A program made the position numbers and the translations under genes. Shown here in pieces: positions 3,021 through 27,062 of a DNA stretch of 64,000 nucleotides. Numbering within the stretch: the stretch's first letter is position 1; each line of letters begins with the position of its first letter. The DNA lies in IMG/VR virus record IMGVR_UViG_3300032335_000499, one strand, 5' to 3'. Origin of the DNA: a virus. Taxonomy: Duplodnaviria > Heunggongvirae > Uroviricota > Caudoviricetes. The notes under the pieces are model-generated. The model saw only the letters and a list, made by a program, of their open reading frames with translations. It had not been told where the DNA came from and ran no database searches.

Positions 3021-3338
3021 ATGATGGATACTAAGACCTTAATTACCGAAGCAAAAGCTCGTTTTGCTCACAACTCAGCAAAAGATTATCTAAAAGAAAA
3101 GTACAACGCTAAACTGTTAGTAGCAGAGCAGGGCGGTCTATGGCGCGCTGATCAAGAAACTATTGCATTTTTAACAGTAATGCCGAACGGCGGGGACGAT
3201 AAACTTATTCTTATGGATACCTTTGATAACCCAGTGTTAGTAGACCGCAGTGAGCTATTAACTAAATTGAAAGATGTTTATAATAGTGTCATGGCGGAAT
3301 GGTACAATGAGTGGAAAGAGCTAGAAAGCAAAAGATGA
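3021..3338 (+). CDS. Hypothetical protein, possible tail-fibre assembly chaperone
   Basis: AGGAG RBS and upstream CTAAATA. GGLWRADQE...DNPVLV weakly resembles fibre chaperones. Confidence 0.4.
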   Translation: MMDTKTLITEAKARFAHNSAKDYLKEKYNAKLLVAEQGGLWRADQETIAFLTVMPNGGDDKLILMDTFDNPVLVDRSELLTKLKDVYNSVMAEWYNEWKELESKR

Positions 3339-4147
3339 CCCGCGGTGTAATAATATTTGCCTTCAATAGTCACAAATATAACTATTATGAAATGGCTAAA
3401 CACGCAGCAAGTCGTGCTAAGCATTTCTTAAATCTACCAGTAACACTTGTGACAGATGAAGACTCCATGCCACCTGGAGAATATGAACACTGGGATAAAG
3501 TAGTAAAGATTAATCCAGACAAGAACAATGTGCGTGACTGGGGTCAATGGATTAATAAAGGCAGATATTTGGCTTATGATTTGAGTCCATATGATGAAAC
3601 TATTCTTATTGACGCTGACTATGTAATCAACTCAGACAAACTATTGAAGACATTTGACATTTACGATGACTTTTGTTGTCATGATAGTGTACGATTTTTT
3701 ATGCGTCAGGGTAATTTTCCCGAGCCACTCAGTCCTAATAGCTATGATGACATTCTGTGGGCAACAGTTATTACTTTTAAGAAAACTGAACGGGCAAAGC
3801 AAATCTTTGAATGTTTGGAAATGATACAGAAGAACTATGAACACTACGAACACATTCATGGGTTCTTGAATGCCGGATTTAGAAATGACTATGCATTGAC
3901 TCTTGCACTAAGAATTGTTAACGGTCATACTGATAACCCTAAAGATTTCATTCCGTGGAATCTAATGCATGTGGGAACAAATACTACAATTTATCCTAAC
4001 AACGAAGGTGAGTTCAATACTGAATACACAATCATGTTTGACAATTGGCAAAAACTCAAAATCAAAAAAGAGTATAATGTTATTAAAGACATGGACTTCC
4101 ATCTGATTAACAAGGATCTTTATGCAAGGATTATTGACAATGGATAA
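3335..4147 (+). CDS. GT-A fold glycosyltransferase-like protein (GT8-like)
   Basis: RGVIIFA start, SPYDETILIDADY with DxD motif, late ND and H motifs. ATG overlaps the upstream stop. Confidence 0.6.
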   Translation: MTRGVIIFAFNSHKYNYYEMAKHAASRAKHFLNLPVTLVTDEDSMPPGEYEHWDKVVKINPDKNNVRDWGQWINKGRYLAYDLSPYDETILIDADYVINSDKLLKTFDIYDDFCCHDSVRFFMRQGNFPEPLSPNSYDDILWATVITFKKTERAKQIFECLEMIQKNYEHYEHIHGFLNAGFRNDYALTLALRIVNGHTDNPKDFIPWNLMHVGTNTTIYPNNEGEFNTEYTIMFDNWQKLKIKKEYNVIKDMDFHLINKDLYARIIDNG

Positions 4148-4898
4148 GGGTTTTGTAATTATGGCGCAGGGTGATGACTATGTTACTTGTGCTAAAGCAT
4201 TAGAGCTTAGTATAAAGCGAACAATGCCAGATGCAAATGTAACTATCATTACTACTGAAATGCTTCCGCACGGGGATCAAGCTCCGGACCTCATTTGGAA
4301 ACTACAGAATGATTGGCAAGTATATGAAGCATCTCCGTATGAATATACTATCAAGCTTGAAGCAGATATGTATCTCCCTCAATCAATTGATTATTACTGG
4401 GATGTGTTGAAGGAACGGGACATAGTAGTGTCTACTAACATTCGTAACTTTAGGCAGGATATTAGTGATGTTCGTTATTATCGCAGATTTATTGATGACA
4501 ACAACCTCCCCGATACATATAACGCCATTACATATTTCAAAAAGAGCGAACTAGCTGAGAAGTTTTTCAATATTGTACGTGATGTATTTGAGAATTGGGA
4601 AGAGTATAAGCGTATCTTAAAGTGTAAAGTTGATGAACTTTGTACAACTGACTGGGCATATGCTATTGCTGCACATATATTAGGTGCCGAGAACACAACT
4701 ATGCCTCAATTTGATTCAATGACAATGGTTCATATGAAACAGTTTATCAATGGTTCTGCTACTGAAAACTGGACTGATTCGTTGATTCATGAACTGTTTC
4801 CCCATACTTTCCGTATCAATACTATCCCACAAGTGTATCCGGTACACTATCATATAAAGAATTTTGCTAACGTAATATTGGAGAAGTTCGGTGAGTGA
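4140..4898 (+). CDS. Glycosyltransferase-like paralogue (GT8-like)
   Basis: KGFVIMA start, SPYEYTIKLEADM; paralogous to the preceding gene. Confidence 0.55.
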   Translation: MDKGFVIMAQGDDYVTCAKALELSIKRTMPDANVTIITTEMLPHGDQAPDLIWKLQNDWQVYEASPYEYTIKLEADMYLPQSIDYYWDVLKERDIVVSTNIRNFRQDISDVRYYRRFIDDNNLPDTYNAITYFKKSELAEKFFNIVRDVFENWEEYKRILKCKVDELCTTDWAYAIAAHILGAENTTMPQFDSMTMVHMKQFINGSATENWTDSLIHELFPHTFRINTIPQVYPVHYHIKNFANVILEKFGE

Positions 4899-5220
4899 TG
4901 AAGAAGAATATGTAATTGTTTGGGAAGCCCCAGAAATTGTTAAGCCGGAGTTTCGCCTTTACTATGATAAGCGTGGAAGCGTATTATTTTATACTTGTGA
5001 GAAGCCGGAAGGCGATTATATTGTAATTGATGCACTGACTTACGCAGAGTCTAGACCTGATATCAAGGTAGTAGACGGAAGAATTGTTAGAGGCGGTGCT
5101 AGTACACTAAGTTCTAGGCTACATAAAAGCACTGAAGGCACTCTATGCGAAGCTGAAGATGTTAGTATTATTACTGAAGCTAGTGGGCAATACTGGAAGT
5201 TGAAAACGGTCAGTTTATAA
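4891..5220 (+). CDS. Hypothetical protein
   Basis: ORF overlapping the upstream gene, GTG start. Confidence 0.55.
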   Translation: MSDEEEYVIVWEAPEIVKPEFRLYYDKRGSVLFYTCEKPEGDYIVIDALTYAESRPDIKVVDGRIVRGGASTLSSRLHKSTEGTLCEAEDVSIITEASGQYWKLKTVSL

Positions 5221-5242: not shown

Positions 5243-5250
5243 TATAAATA
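5243..5250 (+). promoter_or_regulatory. T4-type late promoter TATAAATA
   Basis: Exact motif inside the TTTATAGGG/CCCTATAAA hairpin, with ATG 5 nt downstream. Variants at 752, 3000, 16621, 22711, 27911, 28241, 35148, 40211, 40972, 42697, 43447, 45013 and 47096. Confidence 0.7.
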
Positions 5251-5255: not shown

Positions 5256-6200
5256 ATGGACGACATTATTGATATTGCAGACTTGGATTGTATCTATCTA
5301 AGCTACGACGAACCTCAAAAAGAGGAATTCTGGTTAAAGATTAAGAACATGGTTCCCTGGGCTGTCAGAGTAGACGGCGTTAAGGGAAGCGATGCTGCAC
5401 ACAAAGCAGCAGGAGAAGCATCTACTACAGAACGCTTCATTCTCATTGACGGCGACAACATGCCCGATGAGAACTTCTTTAATCTACAACTAGACTTTAC
5501 AGACAAAGACCCTAATTACAAATTAGCGCAGTATCGTTGGAAAGCAGTTAATGCTATCAACGGACTACGCTATGGCAACGGAGGAATGTCGTCCTGGACA
5601 AAAACCTACGTTGCCAACATGAAGACCCATGAGACAAGTACCGGAAGCGATGCTACTGCCGTTGATTTCTGCATGGATTCTTCCGATAATCTATACTGGG
5701 CAATGCACGACTGCTACTCTACAACGTATCCTAACTACACTCCCTTCCAGGCGTGGAGAGCAGGATTCCGTGAAGGTGTCAAGATGGTACTTGATCGGGG
5801 TGCAAAGCCCAGTATAGATGACTTTAAAGAACGGGTTGCTTCACGCAATCTAAACAATCTCACTATTTGGCACAACGTCGGCGCTGATGTAGAGAACGGT
5901 CATTGGGCTATATATGGTGCTAGACTTGGCACGTATATGACTATGCTTACTGATTGGAACTATACTGATGTCATGTGGTTTGACAACTTCCCTGTATTGT
6001 GGGAAGAGCATAAAAGCGGAGATCCATTAATGGGATCAGAGATGTTGGGAGATGAATTAGCAGCTAAACTAGGGTTGCCCATGTGTATTCTTAATCCTGA
6101 ACAGTCAAAGTTCTTTAAGCGTCACTATAACGCAGACAAACATAATCAAGGTCCATTAGTTAAAGAGATGGATGTTATTCGTAAGATTGAGGGCTGGTAA
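5256..6200 (+). CDS. GT-A-like glycosyltransferase domain protein
   Basis: YLSYDEP, RVDGVKGSDAAHKAA, FILIDGDN (DxD), QAWRAGFRE. Homologous to the C-terminus of 22725..27062. Confidence 0.55.
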   Translation: MDDIIDIADLDCIYLSYDEPQKEEFWLKIKNMVPWAVRVDGVKGSDAAHKAAGEASTTERFILIDGDNMPDENFFNLQLDFTDKDPNYKLAQYRWKAVNAINGLRYGNGGMSSWTKTYVANMKTHETSTGSDATAVDFCMDSSDNLYWAMHDCYSTTYPNYTPFQAWRAGFREGVKMVLDRGAKPSIDDFKERVASRNLNNLTIWHNVGADVENGHWAIYGARLGTYMTMLTDWNYTDVMWFDNFPVLWEEHKSGDPLMGSEMLGDELAAKLGLPMCILNPEQSKFFKRHYNADKHNQGPLVKEMDVIRKIEGW

Positions 6201-7598
6201 TTGTCAGAATCAGAAACAGATAGAATTAAAAGAATCCGTGACTTCATTGACGTAAACGCTACGCCAACATTTTGTTTGGCTAAATGGCAGCATGTTACAA
6301 TGTATCTACAGACAGGTGAGACGCATAGTTGCTATCACCCAAAGCCTCACAAGATTCCTTTAGCCGAGTTAAAAGATAACCCAAGCGCATTGCATAATAC
6401 AATGCACAAGAAGCTTGAGCGTAAAGAAATGCTTGAGGGTAAGAAGCCCGAAGGTTGTCAGTACTGCTGGAACATTGAAGCAATGGGCCCTGATTACATC
6501 AGTGACAGACATATTCGCAACGCAAGTATTTTTACAAAGGAACGTTATGAACAAGCCGCAAAGGGACCCTGGGACCAAAACATCAACCCAGAGTATTTGG
6601 AAATTAATTTTGGTAACGAGTGTAATTTTAAATGCGGCTATTGCCATCCGAAATATAGTACAAAGTTCTACAAAGAAATAGAACAGTTTGGTCCCGTTGA
6701 AAATGTAAAGAACCATCGCTGCGATGTTGACTGGATGAAGTTATTTCAGCGTGAAGAAGAAAACCCTTACGTTGATGCATTCTGGGAGTGGTGGCCTGAG
6801 CTACGCAAGACACTAAACATCATGCGTGTTACTGGTGGCGAACCTACACTGCATAAGAGTACATGGCAACTGTTAGACAAAATTGATGAAGAGCCTATGC
6901 CTTGGCTTGAGCTTAACATCAACAGCAACCTAGGCACTAAGAATATTCTTATTGATCGCCTTGCGGTTAAGGTTAGAAAACTACAAGACGAGGGCAAGAT
7001 TAGAACATTCAAGCTGTTTACTTCAATGGATACATGGGGCGAACGGGCTGAGTATATCCGTTCGGGTCTTGAATTAGAGCTATGGGAAAAGAACTTCCAC
7101 ACTTACGTAAGTAAATCTAATAGCCCTATCACGTTTATGATTACGTTTAACATCTTCTCAGTAACCACGTTCAAGAGCTTGTTAGAAAAATTTCTAGAGT
7201 GGCGCAGACAATACGGCTGGGACGAAGAACGTAAGCAGCATATCATTCGTTTTGATACGCCATACTTACGTGACCCAATTCAGTATGATATGAATATTCT
7301 TCCTAAAGAAGAATTCATGCCCTATATGCATGATGCATTAAAGTTTATGGAAGACAATCTTGATGACACTCGTGCAGATGCCTTCAGCACAATTGAATAC
7401 GAAAAATTCAAGAGAGTTGTTGACTATATGGCAGAAACAGTGTATAGTGATGAAAAGCTAATTGAAGGTCGTAGAGACTTTTACAACTGGTTCAATGAAC
7501 TAGACGATAGACGAGAGACAGATATGTTATCTGTCTTTCCAGAAATGATGGATTTTTATAGGTTATGTCAAGAAGTGAATTTGGTTAATCCACTATGA
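6201..7598 (+). CDS. Radical SAM protein with N-terminal twitch domain
   Basis: CNFKCGYC, TGGEP, N-terminal FCLAKW...SCYH...CQYC. Confidence 0.9.
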   Translation: MSESETDRIKRIRDFIDVNATPTFCLAKWQHVTMYLQTGETHSCYHPKPHKIPLAELKDNPSALHNTMHKKLERKEMLEGKKPEGCQYCWNIEAMGPDYISDRHIRNASIFTKERYEQAAKGPWDQNINPEYLEINFGNECNFKCGYCHPKYSTKFYKEIEQFGPVENVKNHRCDVDWMKLFQREEENPYVDAFWEWWPELRKTLNIMRVTGGEPTLHKSTWQLLDKIDEEPMPWLELNINSNLGTKNILIDRLAVKVRKLQDEGKIRTFKLFTSMDTWGERAEYIRSGLELELWEKNFHTYVSKSNSPITFMITFNIFSVTTFKSLLEKFLEWRRQYGWDEERKQHIIRFDTPYLRDPIQYDMNILPKEEFMPYMHDALKFMEDNLDDTRADAFSTIEYEKFKRVVDYMAETVYSDEKLIEGRRDFYNWFNELDDRRETDMLSVFPEMMDFYRLCQEVNLVNPL

Positions 7599-8782
7599 AT
7601 AAAGATTTCTTATTGAATGATAGTGAAACATTTTGCATGTTGCCATGGATTCATATGATGATGATTCCAAATGGTAACATGTATCCTTGTTGCGTGTCCC
7701 CAATTCAATTTGAAACAGATGATGTTAATAATTATGGTACTATTAACGATGATTTTGCTGTAACGATTAACAATGAAAAGTTTAAGCAACTTAGACTTAA
7801 TATGCTCAACGAGGTAAAAACACCTACTTGCGAATTATGTTATAGAAACCCAGCTGGATATACGTTACGCGGCGAAATGAACCGAACGTTTGAACATGTA
7901 TTTGATGAAACTGTTCCTTTAACTAAAGAAGACGGTAGCATTGATAACTTCAAAATGCGTTATGTAGATTTCAGATTTAGTAATGTATGTAATTTCAAAT
8001 GCAGAATGTGTGGACCTGCGTATAGTTCATCGTGGCCTGAACTGCACACAAGCGGAAAACCTAGATTAGTTAAACCCGCTGACGATGCAAAGGCGCTCGA
8101 AAAATTGTTAGAGCATATTGACTACATCGAAGATATCTATTTTGCAGGTGGTGAACCACTGATGATGGATGAGCATTACATTGTACTAGAAGAATTGATA
8201 CGTCGAGGAAAGACACATGTTAACTTGCGATATAGTACTAACGCAAGCAAACTAACGCATCGCGGCACCAACGTTATTGATATGTGGAAACAATTTGATT
8301 CAGTACGCATAGCAGCAAGTATAGATCACTACGGAGAACGTGCTGAATACATCAGAACCGGCACTGATTGGGGAACAGTAGAAACTAACTTAAAATTCAT
8401 TCAACAATTACCAAATATATATTTTAGTATTAACAACACCGTTACTGTATATAACTATCTTACCCTTAATAAGTTCTACGAGTATATGATTAATAAGGGA
8501 TTACTGAGTAAGGAAACAATTAACAATCATATTTCTCATCATCTATGCTATGGTCCCCCGCATACTACTCCAATGATATTGCCTAAACATCTTAAGGATA
8601 TTGGTACTATTGCTAATAGTAAGTTGCCAATAGACTTATCAGACCACATTAATATAGTAAACGCAGAAGATATTTGGGAAGCTAATAAAGAAAATTTTCA
8701 GCATACTACTAGGTTGATAGACAACGCACGAGGAGAAAGCTTCGTAAAGATATTCCCAGAATTAGCGGAGATGATGGAATGA
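7595..8782 (+). CDS. Radical SAM protein with N-terminal twitch domain
   Basis: FCMLPW...PCC...CELC; CNFKCRMC; AGGEP. Confidence 0.9.
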   Translation: MNKDFLLNDSETFCMLPWIHMMMIPNGNMYPCCVSPIQFETDDVNNYGTINDDFAVTINNEKFKQLRLNMLNEVKTPTCELCYRNPAGYTLRGEMNRTFEHVFDETVPLTKEDGSIDNFKMRYVDFRFSNVCNFKCRMCGPAYSSSWPELHTSGKPRLVKPADDAKALEKLLEHIDYIEDIYFAGGEPLMMDEHYIVLEELIRRGKTHVNLRYSTNASKLTHRGTNVIDMWKQFDSVRIAASIDHYGERAEYIRTGTDWGTVETNLKFIQQLPNIYFSINNTVTVYNYLTLNKFYEYMINKGLLSKETINNHISHHLCYGPPHTTPMILPKHLKDIGTIANSKLPIDLSDHINIVNAEDIWEANKENFQHTTRLIDNARGESFVKIFPELAEMME

Positions 8783-9975
8783 AAAATAACTTCTGTATTT
8801 TGCCTTGGATACATATGCATATCTGGCCTAATGGGTCAGTATATCCTTGCTGTATGAGCGATACCGATCAAGCATTGGGTAACATCAATGATATGCCTAT
8901 CGATGAGGTAATCAATAGCGAAGAATTCAAAACGCTACGCAAGCAGTTTATGAATGATGAGAAGCCGGACATGTGTACACGATGCTTTGAGCTTGAAGAC
9001 ACTGCTGACACATGGACGCTACGTAAGAGCAGCTTAGAGACATTCAAACACTACCTGCCATTAGCAGAAGATACACAAGAAGACGGGACCATTGACGATT
9101 TCAAAATGCGTTACATGGACATTCGTTTTAGCAATCTATGCAACATGAAGTGCAGAACTTGCGGACCTGAATTAAGCAGCAAGTGGTATGACGATCAGAT
9201 TAAGTTGTTCCCTGGCTATGAGCGTCCTAAGTTCATTGACGTAAACAGTGCTGATGACTTTATGGGCAAACTAAAGCTACATTTAGATACAGTAGAAGAA
9301 GTTTATTTTGCTGGCGGCGAAGTATTAATTACTCCCCAGCATTATGAAGTGTTAGACTATTGGCTTGAGCGCAATCGTGATGACGTAAGACTACGTTACA
9401 CAACGAACTTTAGTAACTTGCGCCACAAGAAACGTTCAATGCTTGAATACTGGAAACTATTTAAAGATGTAAGAGTAGCAGCAAGCCTAGATACATTCGG
9501 TGAACGTGCAGAATATAGTCGTTTTGGCACAAATTGGAACGAGATTGTTGCTAATAGAAAAGAAATGATTGAATCTTGTCCCAATACTTACTTTGAATTA
9601 ACTCCTACTATTAGTATCTTTAGCGTATATAATCTATTTGAGTTTCATAAGACATGGGTAGAAGAAGGCTTATTAGACATTAACCATATTCGCATTAATA
9701 TATTGACACACCCTAGATATTTCTCTATGACTATTCTTCCGAAAGAATTAAAGGATAAAATCGCAGGGATATATAAAGAGTATGTTAAATGGTTGCGAGA
9801 AAATAATGCCTGGCGACATATTATCAAGGACGTTGAAGGGATTGTCGAACACATGTATAGTGCTGACCATTCGAATTTGATTCCAGATTTTATCAAGCAT
9901 GTTGAAGCTATTGACAATGTTCGCAATGAGAAATTTACAGAGATTTACCCGGAGTATAAAGACTTATGGACCTAA
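8779..9975 (+). CDS. Radical SAM protein with N-terminal twitch domain
   Basis: FCILPW...PCC...CTRC; CNMKCRTC; AGGEV. Confidence 0.9.
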   Translation: MKNNFCILPWIHMHIWPNGSVYPCCMSDTDQALGNINDMPIDEVINSEEFKTLRKQFMNDEKPDMCTRCFELEDTADTWTLRKSSLETFKHYLPLAEDTQEDGTIDDFKMRYMDIRFSNLCNMKCRTCGPELSSKWYDDQIKLFPGYERPKFIDVNSADDFMGKLKLHLDTVEEVYFAGGEVLITPQHYEVLDYWLERNRDDVRLRYTTNFSNLRHKKRSMLEYWKLFKDVRVAASLDTFGERAEYSRFGTNWNEIVANRKEMIESCPNTYFELTPTISIFSVYNLFEFHKTWVEEGLLDINHIRINILTHPRYFSMTILPKELKDKIAGIYKEYVKWLRENNAWRHIIKDVEGIVEHMYSADHSNLIPDFIKHVEAIDNVRNEKFTEIYPEYKDLWT

Positions 9976-11342
9976 CCCCAATCTCAGTTCCTGCTGAGCT
10001 TCCAAAGATTTCTAAAGTAGATTGGATGGCAAAGAACATGAACAAGTTCTGTGTCCTGCCCTGGATCAATCTACATACTGCACCTGACGGCAAAGTAAAA
10101 CTATGCTGTAGCATTCAGTACAGTAGCTTTGTTACTAACGCGGTCGATACTCCATTCAACTTTGGATATGATAGCATTGAAAGCATTTGGAACAGTGGCA
10201 ATATGCGCTACACTCGTGAAATGCATAGAGCTAACAAAGCGTTTTCGGCTTGTTACGAATGTTATAACGTAGAAAAGATTTCAGGCCATAGTCCTCGTAT
10301 GGGTCAGAATGAAGAATGGCTCAAGCGCAAAGAAAAGGATGAGTTCACTGCTGAGGTAGTAGATGATATTTCCCGTGAAGATGTTATCGATTTAGATAAT
10401 CTCCCCATCAGTCTTGAGCTACGATTAGGTAATCTGTGTAATCTACAGTGTATCACTTGCTATGGTTTAAGTAGCGCACCCATATATGATGAGAGGGCGA
10501 GACTATTAGAGCAGGGAGCAGTAGATGGTCCGGAGCATAAGTTCTTAAAGACAATGTGGAAGCACGAAAAGGATTTAGTCGATGCTACTGATGTAAAGAA
10601 TTGGTACGAGACTGACATGTTCTATGAGAACTTCCGTAAAGTTGCACCAAAGCTAAAGCGGCTTTATACTACTGGCGGAGAACCTACACTAATTAAAGCC
10701 AATTATAAGATGATGCAGATGTTATTGGATGCAGGCAATACTGACTGTGCTATTGAATTCACTAGCAACATGGTGGCTTGGAACTACGAATTCTACAGTA
10801 GACTAGAAAAGTTTAAGAACGTAGAAATTCAGATGAGTCTTGATGGAGCAGGCGATGTCGGTGCTTATGTTCGATATCCTAGTGATATGAATAGAGTCAA
10901 AGAGAATGTTATGAAGGCTGTGGAAATGGCTTCGTCTAGACCCAATTGGAAAATCAAGTGTTATACAGTGTTGCAAGCGTTGAATTATCGTCACATTGTG
11001 CCGGTTTGGGAAATGCTGAGAGAAGCAGCAGACACACATGCTAAGCACATTGATTGGTGGCCAATCACACTGTACTCTCCTCCCCAGCTTTCCTTAGCTG
11101 CAATTCCAATGGAAGCCAGACTATTATATCTTAAAGAGTTTAAGCTATTAGCAGCAGAATTTAATTCTACAGTAAGTTACTTTAGAATCAGTGAAAATAC
11201 TATGACACCTTGCATTGACTCTATTAAGAACCCAGAATATGATCCTGAGTTGCATGAAAATCTAATACGATACGTTAAGGTATTAGATAAGTCTAGAGAT
11301 ATCAGCGGGATAGAATTATTTAAAACGGAATTAGTAAAATGA
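9966..11342 (+). CDS. Radical SAM protein with N-terminal twitch domain
   Basis: FCVLPW...LCC...CYEC; CNLQCITC; TGGEP. Confidence 0.9.
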   Translation: MDLTPISVPAELPKISKVDWMAKNMNKFCVLPWINLHTAPDGKVKLCCSIQYSSFVTNAVDTPFNFGYDSIESIWNSGNMRYTREMHRANKAFSACYECYNVEKISGHSPRMGQNEEWLKRKEKDEFTAEVVDDISREDVIDLDNLPISLELRLGNLCNLQCITCYGLSSAPIYDERARLLEQGAVDGPEHKFLKTMWKHEKDLVDATDVKNWYETDMFYENFRKVAPKLKRLYTTGGEPTLIKANYKMMQMLLDAGNTDCAIEFTSNMVAWNYEFYSRLEKFKNVEIQMSLDGAGDVGAYVRYPSDMNRVKENVMKAVEMASSRPNWKIKCYTVLQALNYRHIVPVWEMLREAADTHAKHIDWWPITLYSPPQLSLAAIPMEARLLYLKEFKLLAAEFNSTVSYFRISENTMTPCIDSIKNPEYDPELHENLIRYVKVLDKSRDISGIELFKTELVK

Positions 11343-12328
11343 GTGAAGTAGATATTGTACAAGAAGAATTAGTTGCAATTAAGCCGATAGACCAGCCTTA
11401 TGTAAGTATTACGTGGCAAGTAAGTGACTTCTGCAACTATAAATGTTCTTACTGTAACCCTGGCAACTGGGCCGGTAAGAATAAAAGAGACGATGGCTTT
11501 GAAGAAATCATCAGTAACTTAAAGATTGTTATTGACAACTACAAAGCGCGGGGATATAAAGGATTTAAATTCTATTTCAGTGGGGGCGAACCTACAGTAT
11601 GGCCGCATTTAATTCCATTAATTAAATGGTTAAAGACTGAGATTGATGATCCGCACATCGGTATTAATACTAATCTAAGCCGTGCTACTAAATGGTGGGA
11701 AGAACATTATACACTGTTTCACGACATCGTTGCAAGCTTTCACATTGATTTCGCTGACCAAGAACGCTACATGACAAATCTATTATTCCTGCAGGATAAG
11801 GTTAACTATCTATGCTCTCGTATGATGATGCAAGAAGATAGATTCCAAGAAGTAATCGACTACGGCCAAAAGGTCAAAGAAACCTGTAAGAACTACAATG
11901 TAGAGTGGGTGCCGCTGTTTGACGATATTACAGTTAACGCAGGTCCTTGGGAATATGGCGAGAAGTGGATGACTGACTTCTTTGTGAAAAACTCATTCGA
12001 GAGTCAGCAAAGGTTACCTAAGCCTGAAGGCAGTAAGTGGAATACATCTAGTAAAGAAGTCTATATGAGCGGGCGTGAACTATCACTTAACGGTAATAGA
12101 ATCGTAGCAGAAAGACGCAACTTCTTCCGCGGATGGAAGTGCAACGTTGATGAATCATTGTTCATCGATACAATAGGAAACATCACTGCTGCTAGCTGCG
12201 GTCAAGGTCCTAAGATGGGTAACATCTACAGTGAAGTCAATCTAGTATCAGAGCCTATTATCTGCGGAAAGATACAGTGTACATGCGGTACTGATATTCT
12301 TATTACTAAGGAAAAAAATAATGGCTGA
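11339..12328 (+). CDS. Radical SAM protein with C-terminal SPASM/twitch-like Cys cluster
   Basis: CNYKCSYC, SGGEP, C-terminal WKC...ASC...ICGKIQCTC. Confidence 0.9.
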   Translation: MSEVDIVQEELVAIKPIDQPYVSITWQVSDFCNYKCSYCNPGNWAGKNKRDDGFEEIISNLKIVIDNYKARGYKGFKFYFSGGEPTVWPHLIPLIKWLKTEIDDPHIGINTNLSRATKWWEEHYTLFHDIVASFHIDFADQERYMTNLLFLQDKVNYLCSRMMMQEDRFQEVIDYGQKVKETCKNYNVEWVPLFDDITVNAGPWEYGEKWMTDFFVKNSFESQQRLPKPEGSKWNTSSKEVYMSGRELSLNGNRIVAERRNFFRGWKCNVDESLFIDTIGNITAASCGQGPKMGNIYSEVNLVSEPIICGKIQCTCGTDILITKEKNNG

Positions 12329-12656
12329 GCTTGCCCCGACAATATTGCCGCATGGCGAGTTGCACGAGGCGATAACCGCCGCGCTTAAGGAAATCTATGA
12401 TCCGGAAATTCCAGTAAATATATACGACCTAGGTCTGATTTACAATATTGAGATCAATGATAATAACCATGCTGTCATTTCGATGACACTGACTACGCCG
12501 AATTGCCCGGTTGCAGAATCGATGCCCGGCGACGTTGAGCAGCGGGTTAGCATAGTGCCCGGAATCAGCAGCGCCGAAGTGAACTTAGTTTGGGAGCCTG
12601 CATGGGATCCGGACAAGATTACTGATGACGCCAAACTAGAGCTTGGAATGTTATGA
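12321..12656 (+). CDS. sufT: SUF system Fe-S cluster assembly protein (DUF59/MIP18 family)
   Basis: DPEIPVNIYDLGLIY, MTLTTPNCPVAESMP, VWEPAW...AKLELGML. Confidence 0.9.
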   Translation: MAELAPTILPHGELHEAITAALKEIYDPEIPVNIYDLGLIYNIEINDNNHAVISMTLTTPNCPVAESMPGDVEQRVSIVPGISSAEVNLVWEPAWDPDKITDDAKLELGML

Positions 12657-16597: not shown

Positions 16598-16633
16598 AAA
16601 TAACCGCGCATATCTAAACAATTAAATATTGTT

Positions 16634-17821: not shown

Positions 17822-18938
17822 TATACCATATCATATTGCTAGATTGTGGCCTGAGTTAGTAGAAAACTCTGACTTAGTTCATATAATTTACTGTGGGAGA
17901 AATATTCCTAATAGGGGATTTTTAGCTATTAATAATGCTACTATTGCAAATGAAATTAATCAAGTATTGAATCAAGGCAAAACTATAATAGTGTTTGACA
18001 ATGTACGTGAAACCTTAGCTGAGGCAGAGATTGTAAAGGTGCATGAAATCATATCATTATCTGATATTAGTAATGATAATGTTTATTATCTAACATCAAG
18101 TAATGATGGTATAGTACACTATGAAATGCTATGTGATAAAAATAACTGGCAACCAGTAAAGTTGGTGATCCTACCAACGTTTGAATATTTGGCAGTAGAT
18201 TTATCTAGGGTTAATCACGCTGACCGTGAATATATTATTGAAAATAAATCTAAGAAATTTCTGTGCTTGAATAGACGCCCGCACCTACATCGTGTATCAT
18301 TGTTGGGTATGCTTTCACACAAAGACCTAATCAGTGAAGCACATTATTCATACTATGATGATTCTTTTTGCAAGAGTCTTTTAGCAGATACTTTGATTAA
18401 TGAAAAGTTCACCAGTGAATCTGCAAGTTGCATATTTGAGGGTATAGAAAAAATCGATGCATCTTTGCCCTTGCGTCTTACCCTAGACCAAGAAGCAAAC
18501 AACCCAGACGGCGTTACTAACGTTGATGAATATTTGTTTAGCGAAACATATTTTAGTCTCATCACTGAAACTTTCTTTTTCTCAGGCTCATATTCGAACG
18601 AACTCAACACCGTGTTCATGTCAGAAAAAACGTTTAACGCAATACTAATGAAACATCCTTTTATTATATTAGGAACTCCGCATTCATTAGACCACTTAAG
18701 ACATTTGGGGTATAGAACATTTTCCCCATACATAAATGAAGACTATGATCTTCCCGATAGTGACGAAAATAGAATGCTAAAAATTGTCACTGAGGTTGAA
18801 CGTTTATGCAATATGTCTGACATTGAATGGCTAGACTGGCAGCAGAATGTAAAAGAAATTGTTGACCACAATTATAATATTTTAGTAGAGCGAAGTTATG
18901 GCCCTATTAACAACGTACAACTAGGAAACACTAAATGA
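17802..18938 (+). CDS. Putative glycosyltransferase (GT10-like), paralogue of 14580..15797
   Basis: KFLCLNRR, FSLITET, MSEKTF...MKHPFI, GYRTF...EDYD. Confidence 0.5.
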   Translation: METLVDNIPYHIARLWPELVENSDLVHIIYCGRNIPNRGFLAINNATIANEINQVLNQGKTIIVFDNVRETLAEAEIVKVHEIISLSDISNDNVYYLTSSNDGIVHYEMLCDKNNWQPVKLVILPTFEYLAVDLSRVNHADREYIIENKSKKFLCLNRRPHLHRVSLLGMLSHKDLISEAHYSYYDDSFCKSLLADTLINEKFTSESASCIFEGIEKIDASLPLRLTLDQEANNPDGVTNVDEYLFSETYFSLITETFFFSGSYSNELNTVFMSEKTFNAILMKHPFIILGTPHSLDHLRHLGYRTFSPYINEDYDLPDSDENRMLKIVTEVERLCNMSDIEWLDWQQNVKEIVDHNYNILVERSYGPINNVQLGNTK

Positions 18939-21022
18939 GCGAACTTAATATATACGCAAAGCCAGCAGAAACAAGACCAATGGAGCCGGATGCCGATACA
19001 AAGCATCTTGCAATGCTTCAGGCTATTGCACCTTATGTTAAAAACAAAGTACAGAAAGGTGTCACTGAAGTAGAGATTGTTCCCTCTACTACTAAAAATA
19101 CTAAGTTACTATTGTTATTGTTACCAGAATGGGCAACAATGTTTCCTCCCTTTAACATGGCAAGACTATCTGCCGTAGCAAAAGGCGCAGGCTATGAAAG
19201 TAAATGCATTGACTTAAACGTTAAAGCTTTCAATTATATGAAAGAAAATAAGAACTGCGGATTAGATTATAGTCCATGGGACGGTGCTCGTGAATGGAAA
19301 TGGACAGGTCACAACTATTACGAAGACTTGCACGAAAGACTAGAGCCTCTTTTCACTTCATACATTGAACAGATTGTAGAATATGCTCCGGACGTAATTG
19401 GCTTTACAACTTATTACTGTAACTATGAGCCTACTAGCTGGATGGCAGGTGAACTTAAGAAAGTATTACCTAACTCAGTATTTGTATTAGGCGGCAGTGA
19501 TGCTCACAAAGAACTAAGAGACATTAATCCAGCGTTTGACTATATTGTTCGAGGAGAAGGTGAAGGCATCATTCTTAACATTCTAGATAATGTAGAGAAG
19601 GGTATTCGATTTGATGAAATGCAAATTCTGCAACAGCCTGAGGGCGAAAGACTTAATTTAAGCGGCTTCCCAACTCCAGATTATTCACACTTTGACTTCA
19701 ATGACTATCAGATTCCGAACGGCGTCAACAGTGAACTTAGTCGCGGCTGCGTTGCTAAGTGTACGTTCTGTGAAGAAACACACTTTTGGAAGTATCGTCA
19801 ACGCCAAGCACTTGACATTCTAACTGAGTTACGCTATCTGTATTACGAGAAGGGTACTGATGTTGTATGGTTTATTGACAGTCTTGTTAATGGTAATCTC
19901 AGTGAGTTGATGGGCTTCTGTAAGGGAGTTATCGCCGCCGGCATGAAGATTCACTGGACAGGGTATTGTCGCTGTGATGGTCGTATGGACTTAGAGTATT
20001 ATCAAATGCTAGCCGATAGTGGTTGTGCAATGCTTAACTACGGTATTGAATCGGGTAGTCAAAAAGTGCTTGATGACATGGATAAGAAGGTTACTGTTGC
20101 TGAGATGGAACAGAACTTTAGAGATGGTGCAGCAACTGGAGTAGGAGCCTTCACTAACTGGATTGTTGGCTTCCCGACTGAACAATATCAAGACTTTGCT
20201 GACACATTAACATTCTTGTGGCGCAATAGAAACATGAACATTATTAATATTAGTCCGGGCTTCGGCTTCGGCCTAGGAATGAATACTGTTGCTGGGCAAA
20301 ACCCTGCACGATTTAACATATTAGATCACAAGTATCTAGATGGTGTCATCACTAAGGACTTTAGATTAAGTAAGTTCCATATTCTAAATCGTATGAAAAG
20401 TTTCTTTATATTCGTGCAGAATTTAATTACTGATAATCCGATTACTATTCCTCAGCGCCCTAACATTCCAATGTTTCACTATAAGTTACACTTATTAGAT
20501 CCTAGTATTCAAAAAGAAATTGAATATGAGCAGTTTGATTATGACATCATTAAGCCAAACATCAGCCCGTTTGCTGATAGTCTAGTAAATGAGATGTTTG
20601 TACTGTTCAGAATGATATGGCGTACTCGTGGCGGATTCCATATGACTGTTAAGTATGATGAAGAACTTGACATGATGGAGTTCGGCGGTCGTAACGCAGG
20701 ACCCTATTGGGCAACACATAAGTTTAATATTGACCATGATGGTAATTGGACATACGATGCTACGTTTAAGTTCGTACAGCCACCCGCTATTGTCGATCCA
20801 GGTGACCCCATGCTTCCTCGCAGTCCGTTCTTTGCTCAAGACTATTCGAGAGAGAAAGTAAACGCTGCTAAGAGAGCTAGAAAGTTAGCTAAGCCAGAAG
20901 AATGGGGAGACGAAGGTAGAGATCATGAACAGTTTATGGCACTGCTAGCAGAAGAAAGAGTATTAAACGAAACTGTTGACTTCACATTTGATTATGAGTG
21001 GTCCGGTTCAGGGAAGTGGTAA
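18935..21022 (+). CDS. Cobalamin-binding (class B) radical SAM enzyme
   Basis: B12-binding N-domain (PDVIGFT, VLGG, RGEGE), SRGCVAKCTFC, GIESGSQKVLDDM, IVGFPTE. Confidence 0.85.
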   Translation: MSELNIYAKPAETRPMEPDADTKHLAMLQAIAPYVKNKVQKGVTEVEIVPSTTKNTKLLLLLLPEWATMFPPFNMARLSAVAKGAGYESKCIDLNVKAFNYMKENKNCGLDYSPWDGAREWKWTGHNYYEDLHERLEPLFTSYIEQIVEYAPDVIGFTTYYCNYEPTSWMAGELKKVLPNSVFVLGGSDAHKELRDINPAFDYIVRGEGEGIILNILDNVEKGIRFDEMQILQQPEGERLNLSGFPTPDYSHFDFNDYQIPNGVNSELSRGCVAKCTFCEETHFWKYRQRQALDILTELRYLYYEKGTDVVWFIDSLVNGNLSELMGFCKGVIAAGMKIHWTGYCRCDGRMDLEYYQMLADSGCAMLNYGIESGSQKVLDDMDKKVTVAEMEQNFRDGAATGVGAFTNWIVGFPTEQYQDFADTLTFLWRNRNMNIINISPGFGFGLGMNTVAGQNPARFNILDHKYLDGVITKDFRLSKFHILNRMKSFFIFVQNLITDNPITIPQRPNIPMFHYKLHLLDPSIQKEIEYEQFDYDIIKPNISPFADSLVNEMFVLFRMIWRTRGGFHMTVKYDEELDMMEFGGRNAGPYWATHKFNIDHDGNWTYDATFKFVQPPAIVDPGDPMLPRSPFFAQDYSREKVNAAKRARKLAKPEEWGDEGRDHEQFMALLAEERVLNETVDFTFDYEWSGSGKW

Positions 21023-21115
21023 TTATGGGGCACCGTATACTGTTGACAGTATCGGAGTTGATCCTAGGTATTCGTTGCAGATAACCGGCATACTGACACC
21101 ATAAAGAGAGAAACG

Positions 21116-21220
21116 ATGTTTAAATTTGTTAAGAATCTATATAATAAAGTAAAGAGAGAAATTCAGTATCGTAAGCGTATCAAGGAACTACGCAAAAGAG
21201 ATCCGTTTATCTATAAGTGA
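21116..21220 (+). CDS. Small basic protein (34 aa)
   Basis: MFKFVKNLYNKVKREIQYRKRIKELRKRDPFIYK; purine-rich RBS; abuts the next gene. Below the ORF-track cutoff. Confidence 0.55.
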   Translation: MFKFVKNLYNKVKREIQYRKRIKELRKRDPFIYK

Positions 21221-21221
21221 T

Positions 21222-22715
21222 ATGAACTACGTAGGAATCAGTTGCGGCTTTCATGACGCTGCTTTAAGTGTCATTAGTGATGGTGGCAATATACTTTTTG
21301 CTGGGCACAGTGAGCGTTACAGTATGAAGAAGCATGACAGTGAACTATGTTTGGGTATAGTGGATGACGCTAGAGATCATATCAATGATGACTTTGAGGT
21401 TCATTATTATGAGCGTCCATATGTCAAGGCTGTTAGACAGTTCTTCGCAGGACAAGAGCTTGGTCCGTTCAATGTCAATAAGATTATCGGCAATCAGAAC
21501 CTACGTATGTTAGAGAGTATGAAGAATATTCGGCAGGGTAAAGTAAAGACTCATAATCACCACTTGTGTCACGTAGCAGCAGGATTCCAAACGAGTCCAT
21601 ATGAGGATGCCACAGTAGTTGTTATTGATGCTATCGGTGAGTTAGATACAATTAGTATATGGGATGCAAAATATGATAAAACGGGTAAGGCAACGTATAA
21701 GAAGATTTGGGGACGTAAGTATCCTGACTCGATTGGTCTTTTTTATTCTGCGATGACAGCAAGGGTAGGTCTGCGCCCACTAGATGAAGAATATATTCTA
21801 ATGGGTATGGCTGCATACGGTGAACCTCTATACAATGCAGATATGAAAAAATTGTTTAGTAACTTTGGCAGTATTGTGTTAAAGGATAACTTACATATCG
21901 GGGTTGACGCAGATTTTCTCAGAGAAGCAGATAAAATGGACATTGCAGCATCCGCGCAAGCTGTGGTTGAACAGTTAATTGAAACTGTAATCAAAAAGGC
22001 TAAGAAGTTAGGCAAGAGCGACAATCTCGTATATGGGGGCGGCGTCGCCCTCAACTGTCTTGCTAACAGATTGATTGGTAAGTACTATGAGAACATTTGG
22101 ATCATGCCTAATCCAGGTGATGCGGGCAATAGCTTAGGCGCAGCAGCGTTAGGCTATGGTAAGAAGGTCAACTGGACTGATGCATTTTTGGGCTATGATA
22201 TCAAGGGCAAGTATCCGGTTGACAACATACTAAAAGAGTTGTATACTAATAAGATGGTAGGTGTCGCTAGTGGCAAGGCAGAGTTTGGCCCTCGTGCATT
22301 AGGTAACCGAAGCCTACTAGCAGACCCTCGAGGGCCTGAGATTAAGGATATAGTAAATGACATTAAACGAAGACAGCAATTCAGACCATTTGCGCCTGTT
22401 ATTTTGGAGGAGCTGGTTACTGATTATTTTGACATGCCTAGCGGCTGGAGTGACAGTAGGTATATGCAAGTCATCGCTACTTGTAGGCATCCTGACTTAT
22501 TTCCTGCTATCGTTCACGCTGACGGGACTTCTCGTGTACAAACTGTGCCGAATGATGGATCAGGAATCAGAAAGCTCTTAGAAGCTTGGTATAAAGAAAC
22601 AGGCTGTCCAATGCTACTGAATACATCGTTAAATATTCGTGGTGAACCAATGGTTAATAGTCGCAGTGATGCCGACAGATTTGAAAAACTCTACGGAGTA
22701 AAAGTCTGCTCATAA
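21222..22715 (+). CDS. Carbamoyltransferase (NodU/CmcH family)
   Basis: GFHDAA, ERYS..KH, HHLCH, DAIGE, GGVALNC, PGDAG, EFGPRALGNRS, RPFAP, NTSLN. Confidence 0.95.
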   Translation: MNYVGISCGFHDAALSVISDGGNILFAGHSERYSMKKHDSELCLGIVDDARDHINDDFEVHYYERPYVKAVRQFFAGQELGPFNVNKIIGNQNLRMLESMKNIRQGKVKTHNHHLCHVAAGFQTSPYEDATVVVIDAIGELDTISIWDAKYDKTGKATYKKIWGRKYPDSIGLFYSAMTARVGLRPLDEEYILMGMAAYGEPLYNADMKKLFSNFGSIVLKDNLHIGVDADFLREADKMDIAASAQAVVEQLIETVIKKAKKLGKSDNLVYGGGVALNCLANRLIGKYYENIWIMPNPGDAGNSLGAAALGYGKKVNWTDAFLGYDIKGKYPVDNILKELYTNKMVGVASGKAEFGPRALGNRSLLADPRGPEIKDIVNDIKRRQQFRPFAPVILEELVTDYFDMPSGWSDSRYMQVIATCRHPDLFPAIVHADGTSRVQTVPNDGSGIRKLLEAWYKETGCPMLLNTSLNIRGEPMVNSRSDADRFEKLYGVKVCS

Positions 22716-25700: not shown

Positions 25701-27062
25701 AAAGCTAACGCAACTCAGTGTATTCATGATATTATAGTTATTGACCATGGCAATACAGAATTACCATCCGTGCTAAAAACTGTTAATAGCAAAGCATGTG
25801 GAAGAAACGTAACAACTATCTCATATAACACCAGTTACTTTGGTACTCTCAAAGAAATCTTAAAGAGGCAACAAGAGAAGAAAGAACATTATATTTGGAT
25901 TTGCTCTAGTGTTTGTGACTATAGCGACTTTGATTTCTCGTATATATGTGACCCATACGCTAAGGACCAGCTGCATGTCTTCCCCAGCGGTATACAGAAG
26001 TTTGGAGATACATTCTTTGTTGATGTTAATTTGGCACGTGAGTTAATTGATGAAATGGAAAAACTAGAAGACTTCCGTAAAGTTAACTTTAACCCCACTA
26101 TTAAAGCAAAGAGACTTCCAGAACCGGTAATAGTAACAACTGCTGATACACACGTTGCATCAATTAAAAATGTCACAGGGTTCCCGTACGCCACTATAAT
26201 CACCGAGGATAATGTAGACATTGAGGATACAGTTATTGAACCGATGAATTTATGGTTTCCAGAGTCAAAGAACATATTGATTACTAGCACCGGCGGAACT
26301 AGAATTGTTGTTCCGATAGAAGCTAAAGATTATGTTACGAGTGAACTGTACGAATACCCATATATCAAGCGTATGCCTAAGCTAGTGAAATCAAATCCGC
26401 TAGACATTGTATTCTTGAGCAACGGGGAAACCGGAGCAGAAGAAAACTATGAACATCTATTGAAAGTTACTGCAAACTTATCCAATAGGGTAGTGAGAGT
26501 AGACGGAGTAAATGGTAGAGTAGCAGCGTATCATGCAGCAGCAGAAGCAAGCAACACGCCATGGTTCTTTACTGTCTTTGCGAAACTAGAAGTCAGTCCT
26601 AAGTTTGATTGGAATTGGCAACCGGACAGAATGCAGATACCTAAGCATTATATCTTTCACGCAAAGAATCCTGTTAATGGTTTAATCTATGGGCACCAAG
26701 CTATGATTGCTTATAATAAGAAGTTGACATTAGGTAACGAGGGTAAGGGACTAGACTTTACGTTAGACAATCATCACGAAGTAGTGCCATTGATCTCCGG
26801 CACGGCACGTTATAACACTGATAGTTTCTCAGCATGGCGTACTGCTTTCAGAGAAGCAATTAAGTTAAAGATGGGTAACGATGATGATTCCCGTGAACGC
26901 CTTGAAGCATGGCTTACCAAAGGCGAGGGTGAGTTCGCAGAATATAGTATCAAGGGCGCTCAAGACGCTATGACCTATTATGATGAGGTCAACGGGGATT
27001 TTGACAAACTAAAACTAAGCTATGAGTGGATTTGGCTCAAAGAAAAATTTGATCAAATTTAA
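22725..27062 (+). CDS. 1445-aa protein with ten tandem repeats and C-terminal GT-A-like domain
   Basis: FDFxWxPDPxxPPYIYxWGN repeats. The C-terminus (DIVFLSNGE, RVDGVNG, AWRTAFRE) resembles 5256..6200. Confidence 0.8.
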   Translation: MLRDVFYYGDKPNVHPREQFAENLADARFKSTTHDFWIINEFCDYQNFDWDFDFELLPDEDVWAEDHNNVWPSQHQKDSGTWLCPKEYSDIIIYRGDVDPVKRKNERTSNWILLDNIDDSKFDFSWHPDPTAPAYIYKWGCKFFPAELKHVLEYHVEGATTEKYMNVIAELLPNSDCWTEHDLINKTKFDMSWRPNPMDPPFIYVWGNKWVDGKLKPTLTYHAPNAVDTKYMPEHVPVLPEWDKWVEIQAVDKNKFDFTWRPDPREPSYIYTWGNKHIAAQDRPTLEYHCDDATDRKYMDEQVPVLPEWDRWKIVQKIDMNSVDFTWRPDPKEPPFTYVFGNELYDAVKMPTIIYNMPDGPEVKYMGNLKAKLAPNVEKFRVLIPIDNDSFDFAWLPDPDEPPYIYTWGNQWNSAEIEPTVEFHVEGATQRKFMDARATVLPDMSRWLEIQEVDKSKFDFSWRPDPTSPPYIYTWGNKWIDAELRPTLEYHCEGAVEPKYMSNDVPVTPESDRWKILQKILPDSFDFTWRPDPREPPYTYVFGNELYDAIKMPTIMYNMPDGPETKYVHDITAKLAGNRSLYEHLEDAELEDYSWVPDPDSPPYIYAWGNQWNKPEDKISIQISVPGATEYKYMEQRAIRKPNRTNWEIPDSLSAFDFSWEPNPNDPPYIYEFATVWNNRGGPRYVVPGATEYKYVEDIKAVLKPDRTNWEIQEGVDTSGFDFSWVPHPDAPAYVYQFGTKTDNDDGPRYVTPNNSGEVVYLERIESTVIVVGQYPIETTLDDLVAQHPNEIFWATRKNIDYSSFDFDWRPGIVEVAWELDYVHVFGSPDSELTQTYFISAKHYAEGNTSLKFVEELKLDESTLSKIFAKPDMFFVDRSNPESAARFEALRAKFGTRIQKTRYLNSWVDTISRCNNRATTELLWVFNSELDYTDFNFDYYPNPWQMKMVHVFGTQWSHWGTTFMVNRETFKEDTKYIKVIEHLSNLNFVKNIKANATQCIHDIIVIDHGNTELPSVLKTVNSKACGRNVTTISYNTSYFGTLKEILKRQQEKKEHYIWICSSVCDYSDFDFSYICDPYAKDQLHVFPSGIQKFGDTFFVDVNLARELIDEMEKLEDFRKVNFNPTIKAKRLPEPVIVTTADTHVASIKNVTGFPYATIITEDNVDIEDTVIEPMNLWFPESKNILITSTGGTRIVVPIEAKDYVTSELYEYPYIKRMPKLVKSNPLDIVFLSNGETGAEENYEHLLKVTANLSNRVVRVDGVNGRVAAYHAAAEASNTPWFFTVFAKLEVSPKFDWNWQPDRMQIPKHYIFHAKNPVNGLIYGHQAMIAYNKKLTLGNEGKGLDFTLDNHHEVVPLISGTARYNTDSFSAWRTAFREAIKLKMGNDDDSRERLEAWLTKGEGEFAEYSIKGAQDAMTYYDEVNGDFDKLKLSYEWIWLKEKFDQI
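23055..25013 (+). repeat. Ten ~63-68 aa tandem protein repeats
   Basis: Consensus W..I..D...FDFSWRPDP..PPYIY.WGN.W......PT.EY...GA...KYM; repeats 3-4-5 resemble 6-7-8. Confidence 0.85.

Follow-up and report, generated by a model that had tools for sequence, protein, structure and literature searches.

The DNA examined here (the window) is the 64,000-nucleotide stretch of IMG/VR record IMGVR_UViG_3300032335_000499, which comes from a T4-like jumbo myophage. The large terminase of this phage (43460-45007) is approximately 50% identical to those encoded by Sinorhizobium phage Phosso, Pseudomonas phage PA5oct, and Agrobacterium phage Atu_ph07. Near its left end, adjoining two fiber-like genes, lies an island of genes for glycosyltransferases (GTs), radical S-adenosylmethionine (SAM) enzymes, further predicted sugar-acting proteins, and a giant repeat protein (Table 1). 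From 3021 to 27062 all open reading frames (ORFs) occupy the plus strand, with intergenic gaps of -28 to +93 nt and overlaps of 4-10 nt between most adjacent island genes, bearing out the near-gapless run described in an original prediction that had been made from the sequence alone. The B12 radical SAM enzyme (B12-binding and Radical_SAM domains), nucleoside diphosphate (NDP)-sugar dehydrogenase (UDPG_MGDP_dh N-terminal and central domains), NodU-type carbamoyltransferase (Carbam_trans_N and Carbam_trans_C), SufT, and giant repeat protein that it named were likewise upheld. Its proposal of a pathway to a heavily tailored glycan also gained support from fold-verified GTs, sugar cassettes in relatives, and polysaccharide-type loci in bacteria; a route for glycan assembly and tailoring that is fed by nucleotide sugars is thus well supported and, in our judgment, highly probable. 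A megablast search of the island against cultured phages returned zero nucleotide matches, and the nearest IMG/VR record is a 40-kb fragment approximately 90% identical to the window. No functional study of these clusters was found in the literature; Nishimura et al. (2017; PMC5332604) only give a count, 12 radical SAM genes and paaD, for a single T4-like genome of marine origin. New here are the fold checks, the layout of conserved head, variable middle, and tail with its counts, the repeat variation of the giant protein, and the bacterial polysaccharide-locus context.

Table 1. Features of the island and its boundaries, with supporting matches; counts out of 80 refer to related IMG/VR loci (see text). 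AF2, AlphaFold2; VIA, as used for fold comparison.
Feature	Coordinates	Strand	Evidence and occurrence
F1, fiber-like structural protein, left flank	782-2011	+	phrog_14394 virion structural protein at N-terminus
F2, Ser/Thr/Gly/Ala-rich fiber-like protein, candidate glycan acceptor	2025-2975	+	Ser+Thr 29%; 80/80 loci
s1, conserved 105-aa protein	3021-3338	+	80/80 loci; homologue, RsoM2USA ORF354
G8a, GT8/Nucleotid_trans-like GT-A candidate	3335-4147	+	ESM Atlas neighbors; 80/80 loci
G8b, paralogue of G8a	4122-4898	+	phrog_1903; 22% identical to G8a; 80/80 loci
s2, small conserved protein	4891-5220	+	71/80 loci
GA, predicted GT-A glycosyltransferase, DGD motif, helical C-terminal domain	5256-6200	+	AF2 model, fold matches
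R1, N-twitch radical SAM, most conserved copy	6201-7598	+	NF033640 318 bits; 72/80 loci
R2, N-twitch radical SAM	7595-8782	+	NF033640 342 bits
R3, N-twitch radical SAM	8779-9975	+	NF033640 394 bits; 39% identical to R2
R4, N-twitch radical SAM	9966-11342	+	NF033640 254 bits
R5x, radical SAM without N-terminal twitch, Cys-rich C-terminus	11339-12328	+	Radical_SAM E 6e-10
SufT/DUF59 Fe-S assembly protein	12321-12656	+	PF01883 E 1.5e-20; TIGR02945 148 bits, above cut-off
R6, N-twitch radical SAM	12653-13906	+	NF033640 277 bits
SG1, SGNH-like candidate	13903-14583	+	G7-D8-S9 and H197 invariant in 35 homologues
GB1, predicted GT-B glycosyltransferase	14580-15797	+	AF2 pLDDT 93.4; Foldseek and VIA matches to GT-B enzymes
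SG2, second SGNH-like candidate	15800-16597	+	Motifs GCSF near N-terminus, DYHPTP near C-terminus
NDP-sugar dehydrogenase	16634-17821	+	PF00984 E 7e-18; PF03721 E 2.5e-15
GB2, paralogue of GB1	17802-18938	+	29% identical to GB1 across 371 residues
Class B (B12-binding) radical SAM	18935-21022	+	PF02310 and PF04055
Remnant of deleted cupin-like gene	21033-21101	+	74% identical to last 23 codons of gene in relative G001
34-aa basic peptide ending DPFIYK	21116-21220	+	1-nt gap to carbamoyltransferase gene; 100% identical in G001
NodU/CmcH-type carbamoyltransferase	21222-22715	+	PF16861 E 9e-48; PF02543 E 4e-33; Carbam_trans_N 115.9 bits, Carbam_trans_C 162.4 bits
Giant protein, 1445 aa	22725-27062	+	Ten ~67-aa repeats, degenerate modules, DxD-less GT-A-like C-terminus
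Perfect sigma-70 consensus promoter, right boundary	27071-27099	+	TTGACA-17-TATAAT, 12/12 matches

Five proteins of the island exceed the curated cut-off of 170 bits for NF033640 (N_Twi_rSAM), a large family that carries a name without a tested function and for which no paper was found. They share with it the CxxxCxxC motif and a four-cysteine auxiliary-cluster domain placed at the N-terminus, and this virus differs in holding them as five tandem paralogues. Pfam SPASM matches three of the five, in each case N-terminal to Radical_SAM (in R2, SPASM at residues 14-82 and Radical_SAM at 128-286), and across the N-twitch alignment (n = 9) the cysteines C6, C24, C66, and C69, together with C121/C125/C128 of the CxxxCxxC motif, are invariant. 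The sugar-acting enzyme BtrN has a twitch (residues 183-259) with which the N-terminal one of the island proteins can be aligned (E 9e-8), and the radical SAM core matches BlsE (E 9e-6). The original prediction had counted six twitch/SPASM enzymes; the sixth radical SAM enzyme, R5x, has no N-terminal twitch, scores 37.6 bits against NF033640 and hence is not a member of that family, carries CNYKCSYC at residue 32, and ends in a conventional Cys-rich region, with five cysteines within its last 65 residues. The likeness to the pathways of BtrN, NeoN, AprD4, BlsE, and GenK thus comprises the twitch alignment, the BlsE core match, and the presence of a class B radical SAM enzyme and a carbamoyltransferase; it is limited by the position of the twitch (N-terminal in the island, C-terminal in the aminoglycoside and nucleoside enzymes), by low overall identity, and by the lack of cyclitol or nucleoside scaffold genes in the island. 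In Vibrio phage KVP40 (133498-137161; L009), an N-twitch radical SAM gene lies near nadV, where its neighbors encode another radical SAM enzyme and a QueC-like protein of the PP-loop type.

The GTs of the head were predicted from a fold (GA) and from language-model neighbors (G8a and G8b). For GA, an AlphaFold model built from an alignment of 52 diverse homologues reached a mean predicted local distance difference test (pLDDT) score of 92.7; its residues 4-161 gave VIA Z scores of 9.4-7.5 to many GT-A enzymes, its best Foldseek match was the PBCV-1 capsid GT (2p6w, E 6.5e-5), and D65/D67 of its DxD motif are nearly invariant (at least 90% conserved among homologues). On the strength of this model GA is confirmed as a predicted GT-A enzyme with a DxD motif, despite a profile search of PDB sequences that gave no usable match and Pfam GT2 matches that remain below threshold in its relatives. 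The close homologues of this head gene number over 8000, and clustering at 50% leaves 1150 representatives; in homologues of 730-810 aa a GT-B domain is repeatedly fused N-terminally to the GA-type domain. Of the three GT-A-like proteins in the original prediction, then, GA stands by its fold, and the other two, G8a and G8b, remain candidates on the softer evidence of language-model neighbors and motifs: the nearest named ESM Atlas clusters of both carry Nucleotid_trans or GT8 domains (PF03407/PF01501 for G8a; score 0.96, 158-169 features in common), and Pfam (at E up to 10) and PDB sequence searches of both proteins gave no match beyond noise. G8a, whose Atlas record begins at residue 9, probably starts at the ATG at 3335. 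Domain-library scans of s1 likewise gave no family match.

The fiber-like genes that precede these transferases encode proteins rich in hydroxylated residues. F1, found in 79 of the 80 related loci, contains a Peptidase_G2 intramolecular-chaperone domain (E 2.5e-5) and has a combined Ser and Thr content of 24%; the orthologues of F2 have a median Ser+Thr fraction of 0.29 versus 0.12 in background ORFs. By tblastn of GA and G8b, Ralstonia phage RsoM2USA is the only cultured phage with these genes, and there the core adjoins sheath and tube genes. Its ORF348-355 match the island in a fiber-like gene, a small gene, two GT8-like genes, a GT-A gene, and R1 at 25-44% identity (G8a, 30% to ORF353; G8b, 34% to ORF352; R1, 35% to ORF349; F2, weakly to ORF355), and differ in having a single radical SAM gene, no variable middle, and an annotation of hypothetical throughout. 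The published proteomics of RsoM2USA covered ten major bands only (PMC8504454).

The middle of the island adds further predicted transferases and modifying enzymes. The Foldseek and VIA matches to the GB1 model are GT-B enzymes; the highest VIA score belongs to the Helicobacter pylori alpha1,3-fucosyltransferase (FucT) 2nzw (Z 10.3), and some 20 other GT-B enzymes fall within one Z unit, among them T4 BGT/AGT, PimB', and chlorovirus and phage GTs. Because this top score is tied, the GT10-like label of the original prediction for GB1 and GB2 is a reasonable lead rather than a family assignment; the GT-B fold predicted for GB1 stands, and no Pfam glycosyltransferase family matched either protein at E up to 10. 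The E307-K308 pair is invariant among GB1 homologues and is presumably the counterpart of FucT E249/K250. A 46-sequence profile of GB1 found no PDB sequence match, and the single sequence gave chance ferritin matches (E 0.3). The two SGNH-like proteins were recognizable by their motifs but not by Pfam: SG1 had no Pfam match and drew only a weak GDSL match from a PDB profile search (E 0.49), and domain scans of SG2, including Pfam at E up to 10, produced no family match. SG1 is 63-72% identical in relatives whose adjoining genes are 85-98% identical. The dehydrogenase scores 154 bits against TIGR03026, under the cut-off of 189.8, and the class B enzyme combines PF02310 (33.2 bits, cut-off 32.1; residues 143-213) with PF04055 (52.8 bits; residues 267-428) and gives partial matches to ApyD/PhpK/BchE-type models, each below cut-off. 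As a 23-codon remnant persists downstream of the class B gene, the lineage of the window has lost a cupin-like cassette.

At the tail, the carbamoyltransferase is a member of its family and not a NodU orthologue, since it scores 125.6 bits against a cut-off of 1000 for the NodU equivalog. The repeat cores of the giant protein (FDFxWxPDPxxPPYIY) lie at residues 122-721 with a period of 65-68 residues, and hhalign relates its C-terminus, which has lost the DxD motif, to the family of GT-A enzymes at 99.5% (E 3e-23); the repeat core also forms part of the GT-A-like domain fold. Homologues range from 841 to 3070 aa and carry 2-32 repeat cores, and a tblastn search of the repeat region against cultured phages gave zero matches. 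The small basic peptide encoded just upstream of the carbamoyltransferase has no Pfam match; its DPFIYK end resembles the DPxxPP(Y/F)IY found in each repeat of the giant protein, and this common string might conceivably serve to dock the carbamoyltransferase.

Comparison with related phages resolves the island into conserved ends and a changeable center. A set of 80 IMG/VR loci, fetched with the GT-A alignment (587 confirmed matches; 59-87% identity), had its ORFs labeled by hidden Markov models and by phmmer, with the proteins of the island as the starting material. In 80/80 contigs the head follows the same order, F1-F2-s1-G8a-G8b-(s2)-GA. Downstream, the middle varies from contig to contig: the N-twitch copies number from zero to at least seven, GT-B genes are interleaved in differing orders, and some contigs place more than 8 kb of genes unrelated to the island after the head. 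On contigs that hold both, the distance from the start of GA to that of the giant gene is 12.8-29.5 kb (17.5 kb in the window). The giant protein was used to retrieve another 80 loci; in 63 of these a gene upstream of the giant gene was labeled, and in 55 of the 63 the carbamoyltransferase gene is the immediate upstream neighbor. Even close relatives differ in content: two that are approximately 90% identical (L006/L007) lack R2 and SufT, and the three examined relatives at this level all carry an extra NDP-sugar epimerase/dehydratase (PF01370, E 5e-44), as well as DegT fragments and genes of no assigned function after the B12 enzyme, with the cupin-like gene seen in G001. This combination of conserved ends with a hypervariable middle is an architecture like that of surface-antigen loci. 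In one relative (L008, 2385-3428 and 8641-10198), the extra epimerase is accompanied by DegT fragments split over two ORFs, and in another (L007, 14693-17023) a 776-aa ORF has dehydrogenase domains in its N-terminal half and nothing detected in the rest. Outside the island of the window, just upstream of the terminase, 38015-40219 encodes two enzymes, one an NDP-sugar epimerase/dehydratase (PF01370, E 2e-44), the other an aminotransferase of the DegT type (E 1e-47), and a class I methyltransferase is encoded at 42710-43414; this second sugar-nucleotide cassette could supply the island with an amino-deoxy sugar.

Expression signals were sought along the same stretch. The original prediction had placed late motifs at 3000, 5243, 16621, and 22711. 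The exact T4-type late box TATAAATA occurs at 5243 only (5243..5250, plus strand), 13 nt before the ATG of GA. The motifs at 3000 and 16621 hold as variants that fit the NNTAAATA box of this phage, namely TCTAAATA at 3000..3007 (plus strand), 21 nt before the ATG at 3021, and ATTAAATA at 16621..16628 (plus strand), 13 nt before the ATG at 16634; the motif at 22711 (CATAAGTA) is unconvincing, with a mismatch in its core. The looser NNTAAATA box recurs at -13 before 16634, 28253, the terminase gene at 43460 (box at 43447), and 45026. Within the island, sigma-70-like matches are no commoner than in shuffled sequence, and no intergenic sigma-70 promoter occurs from the island start until 27071, where the consensus promoter of the right boundary marks a switch to a transcription unit of the host sigma-70 type. 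Late expression of the island is plausible on these motifs.

Bacterial relatives of the radical SAM family were sought by a pattern scan of 185,579 species genomes with the five-sequence radical SAM alignment, which returned 79 loci. Five of these (L095, L097, L099, L100, and L107) carry the full head order F1-F2-s1-G8a-G8b-GA and were therefore dropped as phage contigs mis-binned into bacterial metagenome-assembled genomes (MAGs), leaving 74; the five sit in Haliscomenobacter, Rickettsiales, Verrucomicrobia, and Betaproteobacteria MAGs. The N-twitch family is arrayed in bacteria as well, with at least two copies within 20 kb in 39/74 loci. When neighbors were clustered de novo and their representatives looked up against PDB, the recurrent partners were PhyH-like dioxygenases (15/74 loci, up to nine copies per locus), GT4-like transferases (13/74), an NDP-sugar epimerase (10/74), a carbamoyltransferase (8/74), an NDP-sugar dehydrogenase (6/74), and a Wzt-like O-antigen ATP-binding cassette (ABC) ATPase of approximately 400 aa, 35-40% identical over its full length (7/74, plus 2 TagH-like). 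The ATPase figures come from a cluster of 17 'Wzt-like' proteins, of which the other eight proved to be generic ABC proteins. Several chromosomal loci, such as those on a 4.3-Mb Crocinitomicaceae chromosome and a Henriciella contig, share the order dehydrogenase, epimerase, GT4-like transferases, N-twitch radical SAM, multi-transmembrane protein, dioxygenase array, and Wzt. In five bacterial genomes checked, no Wzx flippase (PF01943) was found within 10 kb of the radical SAM gene, which fits a pathway of the ABC-transporter type, where synthesis of the entire chain, capping included, takes place in the cytoplasm. These polysaccharide-type loci lend independent support to the view that the N-twitch family acts on sugars or glycans, and a sugar substrate is well supported. 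Sequence comparison by itself gives a mixed picture, the twitch pointing to BtrN and the core to a cyclopropylglycine synthase. The Wzm-Wzt and TagGH loci in which bacterial N_Twi_rSAM genes sit also resemble the phage island in their conserved flanks and variable center, and differ from it in that the island has no transporter, membrane protein, or initiating transferase. In the recurring locus type of L105, L158, L160, L115, and L136, up to nine tandem PhyH-like paralogues stand beside a Wzt-like ATPase, GT4-like transferases, and sugar epimerase and dehydrogenase enzymes, together with N-twitch radical SAM enzymes in one to three copies, which looks like an unstudied pathway to a heavily oxidized glycopolymer. 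The window itself encodes two Fe(II)/2-oxoglutarate dioxygenases (2OG-FeII_Oxy_3, PhyH) at 59693-60334 and 61598-62305, and the PhyH-like one shows a weak relationship (E 1e-5) to the arrays of PhyH-like proteins in the bacterial loci.

The interpretation that we favor, and to which about an even chance is given, is that a cytoplasmic pathway of the phage uses nucleotide sugars to build a glycan, which it subsequently edits, the adjacent fiber-like proteins being its likeliest acceptor. We infer the enzymatic steps, their order, and the acceptor as follows. The three head transferases would start from an acceptor that the infected cell produces and equip it with a core of sugars; each radical SAM enzyme would then abstract a hydrogen from one specific sugar position, with oxidation, epimerization, deoxygenation, or C-C/C-methyl chemistry as the outcome, as in BtrN, NeoN, AprD4, BlsE, and GenK; SufT would assist in loading the many Fe-S clusters; O-carbamoylation would complete the structure; and the product would coat the virion by way of acceptors of the F1/F2 type. 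A virion acceptor is favored by the invariant linkage to fiber genes, the late-type boxes, the variability reminiscent of antigen loci, and the lack of membrane proteins: no island protein has a hydrophobic segment (maximum KD19, 1.4), and the island therefore encodes no flippase, initiating transferase, or exporter. More tentatively, and with the chances leaning against it, radical-SAM-edited fiber glycans may be a feature of widespread giant freshwater and marine phages, the island may be a viral 'O-antigen locus', and the carbamoyltransferase and repeat protein may form a capping and length-setting pair.

Several observations count against a fiber glycan. The nearest solved structure to the radical SAM core is that of an enzyme for a peptide made by the ribosome and modified after translation (RiPP), cyclopropylglycine synthase 8VPO (E 8e-14), and the GB1 model ties with the DNA glucosyltransferases of T4. 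Genes of the N-twitch family lie away from structural genes in Vibrio phages KVP40 and K566, and the family is accordingly not always fiber-linked, the KVP40 copy being far from structural genes. Ser/Thr-rich fiber proteins are often free of glycosylation, the proximity to fiber genes could simply mean that this part of the late region tolerates insertions, and late expression is read from motifs only. The literature, finally, holds no experiment on any member and reports no glycan on these virions.

Remodeling of the host envelope is the strongest competitor to the fiber glycan, albeit an unlikely one. The enzymes would edit an undecaprenyl-linked O-antigen or capsule precursor that a host ABC exporter then moves, as a late surface change that might, for example, block adsorption by progeny or rival phages. 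This is in keeping with the bacterial relatives, whose ABC-transporter-type loci include Wzt-like ATPases and multi-transmembrane partners and whose chains, being built and capped in the cytoplasm, are accessible to soluble Fe-S enzymes. The island, by comparison, has no membrane protein, initiating transferase, or exporter of its own, carries late-type boxes, and is fixed beside fiber-like genes in 80/80 contigs; moreover, it is difficult to see why a phage would commit 24 kb to such a task so close to lysis.

Two further alternatives are both improbable, and to the same degree. Hypermodification of DNA, whereby the transferases and radical SAM enzymes put a tailored sugar on phage bases and so evade restriction, draws on the GB1 model, which matches two T4 enzymes, the beta-glucosyltransferase (Z 10.0) and the alpha-glucosyltransferase (Z 9.6), both less than one unit from its best score, and is compatible with late expression, mom of phage Mu being a late gene. 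It is at variance with a cluster linked to fiber genes rather than to genes of nucleotide metabolism, with a lineage that assembles abundantly from ordinary metagenomes, and with a search of the window in which hydroxymethylase, kinase, DpdA, and TET/JBP families were not found. ThyA is canonical (ALPPCH, LPFNIAS) and paired with DHFR. The original prediction had reasoned from the dUMP-specific Asn of ThyA that the window supplies no precursor of hydroxymethylcytosine; synthesis of that base by ThyA is indeed excluded, but Asn by itself leaves hydroxymethyluracil possible, and ordinary thymidine monophosphate synthesis is more convincingly argued from the neighboring DHFR. Alternatively, the twitch radical SAM enzymes may cross-link or otherwise edit a protein, possibly the Trp/Tyr/Pro-rich repeats of the giant protein or the fibers, in the manner of RiPP maturases, with the sugar enzymes serving a separate role. 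The cyclopropylglycine synthase match of the core is joined here by many sub-threshold NCBIfam matches to peptide maturases and by the 2-32 near-identical aromatic motifs that the giant protein would offer. Against such a role, the radical SAM enzymes have no leader-binding domain of the RiPP recognition element type, their N-terminus being the twitch itself; one relative (L037) has the giant protein together with only one radical SAM enzyme; the repeat core belongs to the GT-A-like domain fold too; and the bacterial contexts are polysaccharide-like. Least probable of all is a diffusible aminoglycoside- or nucleoside-like small molecule produced in infection, given that its case, an enzyme set (twitch and B12 radical SAM, carbamoyltransferase, DegT, NDP-sugar dehydrogenase, GTs) mirroring antibiotic pathways with their BtrN/NeoN-like, GenK-like, and TobZ-like enzymes, is met by the fact that the families seen in the window include neither a cyclitol synthase nor any gene for export or resistance, and leaves the invariant fiber-gene linkage and the giant repeat protein unexplained.

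To our knowledge, few systems of virus-encoded particle glycosylation have been described, and none involves radical chemistry. The virion glycosylation operons of mycobacteriophages (Freeman et al., 2023, Cell Host Microbe, as relayed in PMC12801897) and the capsid glycosylation of PBCV-1 (A64R, 2p6w) resemble the island in that viral GTs adjoin structural genes, A64R being the best, albeit weak, fold match of GA (TM 0.28-0.39). So far as the relayed account of the mycobacteriophage operons extends, neither of these systems includes a radical SAM enzyme, a B12 radical SAM enzyme, or a carbamoyltransferase; in both a virion glycan has been shown, whereas for the island it is predicted.

If a radical-edited glycan on the virion is indeed the product, it would give the N_Twi_rSAM family a function for the first time and would be the first viral glycan tailored by radical SAM enzymes, from a gene set that is very common in environmental viromes and evolves like a surface-antigen locus. 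The identity of the product would reveal what chemistry N_Twi_rSAM enzymes carry out, both in phages and in the polysaccharide loci of bacteria, and would tell whether phage fibers bear variable glycans that affect host recognition or defense evasion, a question that the cultured phage RsoM2USA, with its minimal core, makes open to testing.

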